64,000 nt of DNA from a virus. The stretch spans positions 1-64,000 of IMG/VR virus record IMGVR_UViG_3300035698_012128; one strand, written 5' to 3'. The notes under the pieces were generated by a model that saw nothing but the letters and a program-made list of their open reading frames with translations, searched no databases and was not told the DNA's origin. The position numbers and the translations under genes are program-made. Numbering within the stretch: the first letter of the stretch is position 1; each line of letters opens with the position of its first letter. Below, in pieces: positions 37,723 to 40,050 of this stretch.

Positions 37723-37909
37723 TAATATTCTTACTTACATAAAATTAATCAGGGGTTTCATACGATTATGGATATTCAGTTTCTGCCCCCAATGTAATAG
37801 CTCTGCACCTGAATTATATGATTGTAAGGTGTGTGAGTGGCCTCCTCCATATTCATTTTATGGAGATAAATCACTAAAATCAAAAGCTTGGGGAAAATAT
37901 ATAAAATAG
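37706..37909 (+). CDS. Small Cys-containing protein
   Basis: CPQCNSSAP...CKVC. Confidence 0.5.
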   Translation: MFIIINNILTYIKLIRGFIRLWIFSFCPQCNSSAPELYDCKVCEWPPPYSFYGDKSLKSKAWGKYIK

Positions 37910-37923
37910 AACAAAACAAAAAA

Positions 37924-38316
37924 ATGAAATTAAATAAAAATACACAATTTAAATTTATCTTAAGACTGAATGAGGGGAGTTGGGGTAGTATGAGAAAAGG
38001 TGATACTACTGAAGCTACTATAAATTTATTAGATGATTATAATGGGTTAGCCCGATTCCCTATTGATAAAAGATGGGACATAATGCACTGCGAACTTGTA
38101 ATTGATGAGGAATCAATGTATGGGGATGAGGAAGTAAGTTGTGTGGAAGAAAAGCCATGTTGTAACGATGAGCAAGTAGATGAGTTAGTAGAAGAAAAAT
38201 TATGTGATGAAGACATATATGATAACATTTTGGGTCGTGAAGAAATAGAAAAACAAGAAGAAGATATTCTGGATATTTTTAAGCAGAATTTTTTCATCAG
38301 ACAAATTTTGTCATGA
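37924..38316 (+). CDS. Hypothetical protein (ATG at 37924 preferred over TTG at 37888)
   Basis: A-rich leader before MKLNKN. Confidence 0.5.
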   Translation: MKLNKNTQFKFILRLNEGSWGSMRKGDTTEATINLLDDYNGLARFPIDKRWDIMHCELVIDEESMYGDEEVSCVEEKPCCNDEQVDELVEEKLCDEDIYDNILGREEIEKQEEDILDIFKQNFFIRQILS

Positions 38317-38392
38317 TCTACAAAATTAGATTGATAATTCTTTTAATTTAAGGTTTCTTTCGTATATTTATGGTAGTAAAAAATAGAATAAA

Positions 38393-38555
38393 ATGTCTAA
38401 TAATAGAAAATGTAATTTTAGTATAATTTGTAGTGTGAGCTATTCGAGCTTATCACCGCAGCATAATTATCCTAATATATATACAGAGACTTAAGACAAT
38501 CAAAATACATAATGTTTGTTGGTAAATTTAGGTCTCATTTGAGACCTATTTTTCT
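38393..38555 (+). promoter_or_regulatory. Putative leader-peptide attenuator upstream of the tRNA cluster
   Basis: 33-aa ORF 38393-38494; GAGACTTAA (38486-94) complementary to TTAGGTCTC (38528-36); terminator TAGGTCTC-ATTT-GAGACCTA-TTTTTCT. Confidence 0.6.
38529..38555 (+). terminator. Intrinsic terminator
   Basis: Perfect 8-bp stem followed by a T tract. Confidence 0.8.
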
Positions 38556-38575
38556 GTCTAAAAGGTAGTTTTAAT

Positions 38576-38595
38576 AAAAGTTTCTTATTATATTT
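38576..38595 (+). promoter_or_regulatory. Putative early/middle promoter motif AAAGTTTCTT-N3-TATATT (representative copy)
   Basis: Variants near 17322, 19081, 38350, 40138, 42962, 44119, 44708, 47552, 55978, 56990, 59581, 60547 and 63033. Confidence 0.65.
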
Positions 38596-38638
38596 AGTAA
38601 TAAGAGTATAGTTAATTGACGTATTAGAAATTTGTAAT

Positions 38639-38726
38639 AGAGGGCTGGCAGAACTGGCACAATTGCACTAGTCTTGAAAACTAGAGACCGGTAAACGGTT
38701 TATGGGTTCGAATCCCATGCCCTCTT
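38639..38726 (+). tRNA. tRNA-Ser(TGA)
   Basis: CTAGT-CTTGAAA-ACTAG, long variable arm, GGTTCGAATCC. Confidence 0.92.
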
Positions 38727-38732
38727 CAATAA

Positions 38733-38803
38733 TGCCTTGTAGTGTAACGGCAGCACGCGTGGATTTGGCCCTCGCAGCATGGGTTCGAATCCCGTCAAGG
38801 TAT
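38733..38803 (+). tRNA. tRNA-Gln(TTG)
   Basis: TGCCTTG/CAAGGTA acceptor stem, loop ATTTGGC. Confidence 0.85.
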
Positions 38804-38804
38804 C

Positions 38805-38953
38805 TAAGTAGTAGAACAACTGATAGTTCAGCTTGCTAACAGATAAATTAAATTATAAGTCTGGTAAACAGGTTCAAAGTAGTTGAGAGAGGTTTAATAT
38901 CAATAGTACGTAAATTCAACTTTGTGGTGTAGGTTTGAGTCCTACCTACTTAA
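38805..38953 (+). ncRNA. 149-nt tRNA-like RNA with greatly extended anticodon and variable arms
   Basis: TAAGTAG/CTACTTA acceptor stem, GAAC/GTTC D stem, GTAGG-TTTGAGT-CCTAC T arm. Confidence 0.7.
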
Positions 38954-38973
38954 AACATTAATTAAAAACAATT

Positions 38974-39294
38974 ATGGCATTAGATTTAGAAGTACTAAGA
39001 AAAAAACTAGATGATGCTTTAGTATCAGAAACAAAAGAGAGTTTTGAAAAATGGTTCGAAAAAACTAGAATTGAAACTACTGAAAAAGATGTATTGAACC
39101 GTAACTACCATTTTCATATAGATGGTAATAAGTTAATTATCCAAAATTATTCTTATATGGATAGTGGGTGGTATGTAGAAGTAGATAGAAAAAAAGTATC
39201 GTTATATGAAGTATGGGAGGGTAATAAACCTCAAAAATACGGTGATTACGATACCATTTTAGAAGCTTTAAAAGATACGGTTAATTTAAGTTAA
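38974..39294 (+). CDS. Hypothetical protein in the tRNA cluster
   Basis: 106-aa ORF with A-rich leader. Confidence 0.6.
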   Translation: MALDLEVLRKKLDDALVSETKESFEKWFEKTRIETTEKDVLNRNYHFHIDGNKLIIQNYSYMDSGWYVEVDRKKVSLYEVWEGNKPQKYGDYDTILEALKDTVNLS

Positions 39295-39343
39295 GTTATG
39301 AATAGTTTACTAAACTTCTATTGAAAATAAAAAGTTTAAAATT

Positions 39344-39422
39344 CGGAATGTAGAGGAGTCAGGTTTATCTCGTCTGCTTTGGGAGCAGAAGCACGTGGGT
39401 TCAAATCCCGCCATTCCGACCA
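39344..39422 (+). tRNA. tRNA-Pro(TGG)
   Basis: TCTGC-TTTGGGA-GCAGA; encoded CCA. Confidence 0.93.
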
Positions 39423-39428
39423 AAAAAT

Positions 39429-39504
39429 GCCTTCGTAACTCAGTTGGTTTCAGAGTACCGTGCTTTTAACACGGGAGTCGGGAGTTCGAATCTCTCCGGG
39501 GGCA
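39429..39504 (+). tRNA. tRNA-Lys(TTT)
   Basis: CCGTG-CTTTTAA-CACGG. Confidence 0.93.
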
Positions 39505-39567
39505 CTAAAGTAGTATACGTTATGAGTCAAACAAACTTCACAGTAAATGAGATTAAAGAGTTAAAAT

Positions 39568-39642
39568 GCTCCCATAGCTCAGTTGGTATAGAGCGCTGAT
39601 TTTACACGTCAGAGGTCACAGATTCGAATTCTGTTGGGAGTA
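39568..39642 (+). tRNA. tRNA-Val(TAC)
   Basis: CTGAT-TTTACAC-GTCAG. Confidence 0.9.
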
Positions 39643-39718
39643 CGAGGCGGAACGAAAACCGAAAGAAAGAAACAGGAAAAACTTCGTGAGTTGTGTATCT
39701 CATTAAAAATCCACAAAT

Positions 39719-39802
39719 GCCAGAGTTAAGCAGGTGGTGTGCTTAGTAGACTGTAAATCTATACTCATTGTGAGATTGGGGGTTCGATTCCCTTCTCTGG
39801 TA
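39719..39802 (+). tRNA. tRNA-Tyr(GTA)
   Basis: GTAGA-CTGTAAA-TCTAT, long variable arm. Confidence 0.9.
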
Positions 39803-39820
39803 CTAAAACATATACAAAAC

Positions 39821-39889
39821 GGGATAGATTCTTCGGAGAAACCAGATCTGTAAAATCTCACCTAGTAGGTTCGATGCCTGCCTATCCCA
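39821..39889 (+). tRNA. Atypical short tRNA with GTA anticodon
   Basis: GGGATAG/CTATCCC acceptor stem, TTCT-TCGG-AGAA mini D arm, AGAT-CTGTAAA-ATCT, GTAGG-TTCGATG-CCTGC. Confidence 0.7.
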
Positions 39890-39895
39890 CTAAAT

Positions 39896-39967
39896 TCCTC
39901 TCTCATATAATGGTAATTATTCCTAACTGTTAATTAGGCTATCGTGGTTCGAGTCCACGGAGGGGAG
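39896..39967 (+). tRNA. tRNA-Asn(GTT)
   Basis: CCTAA-CTGTTAA-TTAGG. Confidence 0.9.
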
Positions 39968-39976
39968 CAATTAAAC

Positions 39977-40050
39977 AGACATATAGCTCAGTTGGTTAGA
40001 GCACCTGGCTGATAACCAGGTTGTCGTGGGTTCAATTCCCCCTATGTCTA
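39977..40050 (+). tRNA. tRNA-Ile(GAT)
   Basis: CCTGG-CTGATAA-CCAGG. Confidence 0.92.

Follow-up and report, generated by a model that had tools for sequence, protein, structure and literature searches.

The region described here heads the tRNA gene array of an uncultured phage and combines two promoter-like motifs with a small open reading frame (ORF) and an intrinsic terminator. It lies in a window of 64,000 nucleotides (nt), the first 64 kb of the 94.7-kb IMG/VR record IMGVR_UViG_3300035698_012128, the completeness of which is estimated at 58%. The DNA contains about 30% G+C and every gene in the window is located on the + strand, as are all features given below. The window carries 25 tRNA genes, 24 of which form an array at 38639-45754 that begins, according to ARAGORN and Rfam, with tRNA-Ser(UGA) and tRNA-Gln(UUG) (38639..38804). 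A preliminary description of this DNA had regarded the stretch ahead of the array as a leader-peptide attenuator that could respond to a shortage of tRNA, and the proposal is considered here in the light of the window itself and of related viral contigs.

Promoter motifs and leader ORF

The promoter-like motif reported upstream of the ORF is present as a perfect core match (P1, 38352..38370, core 38353-38370). It represents a phage-specific motif composed of GTTTCTT, a gap of 1-3 nt and TATATTWA, usually followed by TATAATAA, of which the record holds about 23 strict copies, all intergenic and on the coding strand. These copies are positioned 16-41 nt upstream of start codons or just before tRNAs, and their sites in the window include 29912, 40142, 42964, 44122, 45984, 55982, 56994, 60551 and 63037. 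The motif probably acts as a promoter, and its TATATTWA half is similar to the -7 box TAnnTTTG of Bacteroidota (PMC9723704). A sigma-70 consensus scan performed at chance level and was not used. The caveat that another promoter-like motif lies downstream (at 38576) holds and carries more weight than stated. This motif is a second perfect copy (P2, 38580..38596), conserved among the relatives treated below and the putative promoter of the array. Several copies are found directly after terminators, with terminator/promoter junctions at 45961/45984, 79034 and 87326. Since both P1 and P2 are perfect copies and motif copies follow terminators, the local layout is taken to be P1, small ORF, terminator, P2 and tRNA array.

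The leader ORF of 33 codons is intact at 38393..38494 and ends in TAA, and the distance of 22 nt from P1 to its ATG (38393) is inside the range seen at real genes. Seven of the 32 codons after the start encode serine, as previously stated, which exceeds the serine frequency of the genome (P = 0.006, uncorrected for the choice of amino acid). Inside the ORF lies an imperfect hairpin of about 22 bp (H1, 38418..38475), recovered in both minimum-energy and centroid folds. The atypical GC-ending codons that had drawn attention to the ORF are located in the stem of H1, as are most of the Ser codons, so the serine cluster is largely a consequence of the self-complementary AGCU stem of this hairpin. 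The codon usage of the ORF is non-coding-like (-7.1 bits, compared to +5.8 +/- 4.0 per 32 codons for phage genes in frame and about -7 off-frame). No relative of the 33-amino-acid (aa) peptide was found with HMMER among 1.84 billion cluster representatives, where only two low-complexity multi-stretch matches appeared, and PHROGs gave no match for the window ORF or for the ORFs of the relatives. H1 was also considered as a degenerate tRNA, on which ARAGORN and Rfam were silent, and three copies of GAGAC/GGTCTC were considered as a DNA operator and dismissed, having no recurrence near other promoters. From the window alone it could not be decided whether the unit is an attenuator, a small RNA gene or a product of chance.

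Terminator and antiterminator

The terminator proposed between the leader ORF and tRNA-Ser is present at 38527..38553 (5' arm 38529-38536, 3' arm 38541-38548, T-run 38549-38553), and its hairpin at 38529-38548 is the sole terminator-like site in 37800-39400. This hairpin has 8 bp, four of them G-C, a loop of 4 nt and five T residues after the stem, with a folding energy of -11.2 kcal/mol. The pairing claimed between the end of the ORF and the 5' arm of the terminator is likewise present and is slightly longer than described. It forms an antiterminator of 10 bp, including two G-U pairs, in which 38486-38495 pairs with 38527-38536 and a small hairpin (H2, 38499..38523) is nested inside. The 5' strand of this helix (38486..38495) consists of the last two sense codons, the TAA and one more base. 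The stop codon (38492-38494) is thus enclosed in the strand, and by geometry a ribosome at the stop would cover it. The His, Asn and Tyr codons near the end of the ORF were rejected as sensors, as a ribosome stalled there would also cover part of this strand.

Folding of the two alternative structures, the check suggested in the preliminary description, shows that they are mutually exclusive and that the fold of lowest energy is the antiterminator as long as the 3' arm of the terminator has not been made. Once both are available the predicted states are only 1.7 kcal/mol apart (-36.1 kcal/mol for the terminator and -34.4 kcal/mol for the antiterminator state). When the 5' arm is added, the upstream RNA gains -9.2 kcal/mol in stability, compared to -2.8 +/- 2.1 kcal/mol for dinucleotide shuffles, of which 4 in 500 reach the observed value, and the five other perfect terminators of the genome gain only -1.0 to -3.5 kcal/mol in the same measure. 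An upstream helix sequestering the antiterminator strand was found neither in the window nor in the relatives, and H1 excludes this strand.

Apart from this switch, it was observed that the frame of the leader continues beyond its TAA with five codons, a second TAA, nine codons across the 5' arm of the terminator and then a TGA, which sits where the terminator loop meets the 3' arm (region 38492-38542). Suppression of both TAA codons would therefore push ribosomes into the terminator. One of the tRNAs predicted by ARAGORN (44855-44929) has the anticodon UUA and is of the ochre suppressor type.

A conserved module upstream of tRNA arrays

Direct searches with the locus returned little. Using blastn, 37900-39300 had no match among cultured phages, the exact leader and terminator strings are absent from IMG/VR, and the flanking proteins of 106 and 142 aa have no useful relatives. 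The relatives of QueE (47-57% identity) are not syntenic, no tRNAs follow QueE in Flavobacterium phage vB_FspM_immuto or in three metagenome contigs, and an IMG/VR scan with QueE found no relative. The 30-nt consensus of the promoter motif has no match in any other IMG/VR contig, and the motif as a probe for relatives gave chance single matches only. Relatives were reached via NrdA (contigs at 74-79% identity) and then via a conserved element preceding the tRNAs. In three contigs with NrdA matches (L149, L152 and L160) a tRNA array beginning with tRNA-Ser(UGA) is located 8-10 kb downstream, and the order Ser(UGA)-Gln-Pro-Lys-Val is common to L152, L160 and the window. In all three, the DNA upstream of tRNA-Ser holds a small ORF followed by an intrinsic terminator, then a P2-like motif and finally a 20-nt element (AGTTMATTGACRTATTRGA), which the window shares at 38610..38628, between P2 and the first tRNA.

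This 20-nt element is located 8-15 nt ahead of the first tRNA of the array, and an exact-pattern scan for it matched 105 stretches of IMG/VR viral contigs (including the loci L207-L311). Most of the matches have a terminator upstream and a tRNA array or another non-coding stretch downstream; a few are in coding DNA. The small ORF of these contigs, with 44-51 codons, is present at 47 of the 105 loci, representing about 35 distinct sequences. In these about 35 contigs the module starts with a promoter and the ORF, continues with a spacer hairpin and the terminator, and ends with a second promoter and the element ahead of tRNA-Ser(UGA) and the array. A promoter-like TATATTTAT motif occurs in almost all members and ends about 20 nt before the ATG of the ORF, the stop of which is TGA (TAG in one) where the window has TAA. 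A P2-like motif is located between terminator and array in 19 relatives and in the window, which make up 20 of 21 distinct intervals, and is absent only in L255. The module was found in none of the cultured phages. The leader of the window is equivalent to that of the family by position and architecture and not by sequence; it either diverged past recognition or was replaced, the architecture having outlasted the sequence.

The element itself may act in the RNA, as a leader or a signal for processing, or else as a protein site or a promoter part. In L258, L268, L272, L221, L226, L308 and others a putative tRNA-like gene pair is placed between the terminator/P2 and the element; it begins GGGGCGGTGGTAAA, and a second T-arm-like stretch comes next.

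Conservation and covariation in the family

The leader ORFs of the family fall into six length classes, which differ between two conserved blocks and all preserve the frame, and the position of the stop codon is fixed in all but one, with indels of 1-2 nt after the stop. In the leader ORF the three codon positions vary about equally, with pairwise differences that sum to 11.2, 10.3 and 12.7 for positions 1, 2 and 3, unlike those of NrdA in the related contigs (0.116, 0.065 and 0.334 per site), and the conserved columns of the leader are conserved also at synonymous sites. WSDSLC and YNNEPK, the most conserved motifs of the peptide, are encoded by the two strands of a single 12-bp helix. The combination of a preserved frame, constrained synonymous sites and a weak selection on amino acids would be expected for a regulatory leader ORF. 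The helix inside the ORFs of the relatives, at the place equivalent to H1, is 90% paired and nearly invariant, and covariation speaks neither for nor against it. Their terminators are 98% paired with three compensatory pairs.

The geometry identified in the window recurs in the roughly 35 related contigs, where the pairing that forms the predicted antiterminator is kept with compensatory changes, as the preliminary description had suggested should be checked. Complementarity to the 5' arm of the terminator is located in the final 8-10 nt of the ORF, which constitute the best partner within the ORF in 33 of 36 sequences; the leader stop is inside the antiterminator strand in the window, and in the main family the complementary strand stops 1-3 nt short of the stop codon. 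Cognate pairs average -10.3 kcal/mol, compared to -8.5 kcal/mol for swapped pairs, a difference reached in none of 10000 permutations. In three sequences GATCTGGG with CCCGGATC has changed to GATTTGGG with CCCAAATC, a change which is synonymous for Leu and which the 3' arm follows in step. In addition CCGAG/CTCGG alternates with CCGGG/CCCGG, with A-U in 8 or 9 and G-C in 9 or 10 sequences depending on the set, and G-U intermediates are seen in three or four sequences. Truncated-RNA folds give an antiterminator enclosing the spacer hairpin in 8 of 9 sequences, the window included, and in per-sequence shuffle tests at most 3 of 200 shuffles reach the observed value in 7 of 12 representatives, the result being weak in variants with 5 bp.

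A separate observation concerns small-ORF-plus-terminator modules that are unrelated in sequence and lie upstream of the same 20-nt element (L263/L273, L276/L250, L277/L217, L310 and L288). Each of these ORFs repeats the 3' arm of its own terminator almost exactly, with duplexes of -10 to -16 kcal/mol, and in shuffled-arm controls 0-2 of 100 reach the observed energy; between L277/L217 and L310 there is a compensatory change from CTG/CAG to TTG/CAA. The pattern is suggestive, and the simple model of stop masking may not be applicable to these modules.

A proposed ribosome-sensed attenuator and its alternatives

Taken together, a somewhat better than even case can be made that the region is a leader-ORF transcription attenuator that is sensed by the ribosome and heads the phage tRNA array. 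P1 would start a short transcript carrying the 33-codon ORF, of which the last two codons and the stop would serve as the 5' strand of the antiterminator and consume the 5' arm of the terminator 33 nt downstream. With a ribosome close behind the RNA polymerase, on or near the stop, the strand would be masked since the stop codon is covered, and the terminator would fold, ending the P1 transcript at about 38553. With the ribosome absent, late or stalled upstream, the antiterminator would form first and the polymerase would continue past P2 and transcribe tRNA-Ser and the array, in addition to the output of P2. The input would in that case be the general performance of translation and not the supply of one amino acid. 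By analogy with the classical trp model, the spacing of 33-45 nt between stop and arm would fit a ribosome closely trailing the polymerase. The comparison of contigs suggests that dozens of uncultured phages may tie part of their tRNA transcription to ribosome performance.

Phage tRNA arrays are now viewed as a means of countering immunity that targets tRNAs and of buffering the tRNA pool, while the control of their expression is little understood. When ribosomes are slowed, by a tRNA-cleaving defence or by late exhaustion of tRNA, the leader ORF would be left unfinished, the terminator bypassed and the supply of tRNA boosted. That such modules constitute an undescribed and widespread class of phage attenuators, placing tRNA arrays under feedback from translation capacity as an inducible counter-defence or as a homeostat, is a more tentative proposal, which may well not hold. 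The module spans only about 200 nt, and the family alignment already holds natural compensatory variants. Even if the switch does not respond to translation, the preserved frame and the three-way covariation would point to a regulatory RNA, as yet unexplained, that is shared by a large group of uncultured phages.

Several observations weigh against an attenuator of this kind. The leader of the window has no detectable homology to the family (the best nhmmer match, E = 2.6, is elsewhere), and the peptides are 22% identical with short shared motifs only. In five sequences the pairing is interrupted by an A-C mismatch, accompanied by a new shifted GGTACC/GGTACC pairing that shares only 2 nt with the terminator stem, and in many relatives the pairing is just 5 G-C-rich bp and not individually significant. 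Because the covarying sequences are mosaic and related to one another, their changes may not all be independent events. Tandem regulatory codons are absent, the Ser cluster being confined to the window and not conserved. As a sequestering helix is missing, untranslated RNA should read through, unlike that of the trp attenuator. The position of P2 after the terminator in nearly all members implies that the switch is not the sole control and that its dynamic range may be small, as read-through can only add to a basal transcription of the tRNAs.

An unlikely alternative is that the ORF, with P1 and the terminator, is an autonomous micro-gene that makes a small protein or a stable RNA, with the terminator insulating an array driven by P2 and the pairing at the end of the ORF serving the stability or translation of the released transcript rather than the control of transcription. 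The unit does have a promoter and a terminator of its own, terminator-then-promoter junctions recur in the genome, P2 is conserved, and other small ORFs are found among the tRNAs (e.g. 40188-40292). The conservation of WSDSLC and YNNEPK in the relatives points the same way, except that the two motifs are encoded by the two strands of a single RNA helix, that the conserved columns are conserved at synonymous sites as well, and that the variable ones change at all codon positions in a manner foreign to NrdA. Nor does a micro-gene agree with the non-coding-like codon usage and the lack of peptide homologs of the window ORF, and it fails to explain why the partner strand tracks changes in the 5' arm of the terminator. 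The same tracking argues against a chance ORF with chance complementarity beside an ordinary terminator. A 33-codon ORF is estimated to be about 5% likely after a promoter in DNA of 30% G+C, and the codon usage would suit such an origin, whereas the shuffles, the natural terminators used as controls and the recurrence of the architecture with a different sequence and with covariation in about 35 relatives make it extremely improbable.

Two further explanations accept the switch and question what sets it. A factor other than the ribosome might do so, either an RNA-binding factor of phage or host or a small molecule that favours one conformer, perhaps via H1, or the antiterminator might simply make the terminator constitutively leaky. 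Nucleotide sequence is conserved in H1 and over long parts of the leader, and in the unrelated small-ORF modules the complementary strand begins 23-47 nt before the stop, outside the cover of a ribosome. A pure RNA- or protein-binding element would, however, not need a frame and a stop position that are conserved over six length classes. The strand lies across the stop (window) or ends 1-3 nt before it (main family) in sequences that are unrelated, and no Rfam family reaches its threshold in the window or L160; this explanation is quite unlikely. The remaining one is the specific sensing put forward in the preliminary description, in which the leader detects that Ser-tRNA is short, or that anticodon nucleases have cleaved host tRNAs, and in response switches on the phage tRNAs as a counter-defence. 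The seven Ser codons, including rare TCG and AGC, are placed 30-60 nt upstream of the antiterminator strand, and a ribosome stalled at them would leave this strand free; moreover, tRNA-Ser(UGA) is the first gene of the array in the window and in the relatives checked. Phage tRNAs counter tRNA-cleaving defences, and an inducible counter to anticodon nucleases would fit current views of their role (PMC10264068, PMC11464382, PMC11555353). The serine specificity nevertheless finds no support, since the leaders of the relatives are not Ser-rich (about 4 Ser in 45 codons in L160); the Ser codons of the window follow from the AGCU-containing stem of H1, and similar modules or the element are found ahead of arrays starting with tRNA-Leu or tRNA-Asp. 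The role against anticodon nucleases is likewise unsupported, and this part of the original proposal is very doubtful.

Phage, host and array context

The sequencing run that matches best, a salt-lake metagenome, is probably the source sample. No sequence variants of the leader were present in the contigs of four salt-lake DNA runs, among which only the likely source run covered the leader. The closest cultured phage by NrdA is vB_FspM_immuto (61% amino-acid identity), and the start codons of the window lack a Shine-Dalgarno sequence and are preceded by A-rich leaders. On these two grounds the host of this uncultured phage is probably a member of the Bacteroidota.

At the 3' end of the array (45961-46001) a terminator, with a stem of 11-12 bp depending on the scan, is immediately followed by the promoter motif, so that the array is bracketed by terminator-promoter junctions at both ends. 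Within the array, the 40142-40375 stretch comprises a perfect copy of the motif and then a hydrophobic ORF of 34 codons (40188-40292), followed after 8 nt by tRNA-Met with no terminator in between. Directly 3' of tRNA-Gln lies a stretch of about 150 nt (38805-38953) with a T-arm-like sequence at its end; it has no ARAGORN or Rfam match and may be a degenerate or expanded tRNA-like RNA.

Comparison with known systems

Leader-peptide (class I) attenuators are known in Proteobacteria from the operons trp, his, thr, leu and pheA, and in trp the antiterminator is the less stable of the two structures and prevails over the terminator only because it is the first to form. The phage module resembles these attenuators in its short leader ORF and in a terminator 5' arm that has an alternative partner strand upstream, and, as far as geometry indicates, in that a ribosome at the leader stop would mask this strand and favour termination. 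It differs in that the cargo is a phage tRNA array and not a set of biosynthetic genes, in lacking a run of codons for a single amino acid, in lacking a region 1 that sequesters the antiterminator strand, which makes it a two-state and not a three-state device, and in having a conserved promoter between its terminator and its cargo. Leader-peptide attenuation has been reported as likely in Flavobacterium, with candidates in Flavobacterium psychrophilum (PMC9723704). Among cis-regulatory Rfam families the best match on a relative is Thr_leader (RF00506), which on L160 remains below the threshold (23.1 bits against a gathering score of 55, E = 0.079) and has no match in the window.

A leader-peptide attenuator also controls an operon of the translation apparatus, pheM-pheST of E. 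coli. The phage module would share with it an attenuation by leader translation that feeds back on the translation machinery, while pheM-pheST is specific for Phe codons, controls a synthetase rather than tRNAs and is bacterial rather than viral. T-box riboswitches are likewise terminator/antiterminator switches that respond to the state of the tRNA pool and control translation-related genes. In T-boxes the uncharged tRNA itself is bound, by means of a specifier loop and a UGGN bulge, whereas the sensor in the phage would be the ribosome; the UGGU at 38520-38523 sits within a helix. With the T-box model (RF00230) no match was obtained at E <= 1 in 37800-39400 or on L160 and no such elements were found there, and a T-box-like or preQ1-like riboswitch was set aside, having no Rfam support.

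The tRNA clusters of T4- and T5-like phages contain internal promoters and small ORFs or stable RNAs, and like these clusters the present array is interspersed with promoters, small ORFs and structured RNAs. The tRNA arrays of T4- and T5-like phages are not known to begin with a leader-ORF attenuator, and full-text literature searches did not turn up any report of attenuation ahead of the tRNA arrays of phages. If the proposed mechanism is true, it would extend leader-ORF attenuation to viruses and to a cargo of RNA genes, and it would, to our knowledge, be the first described feedback link between the performance of translation and the supply of phage tRNAs.

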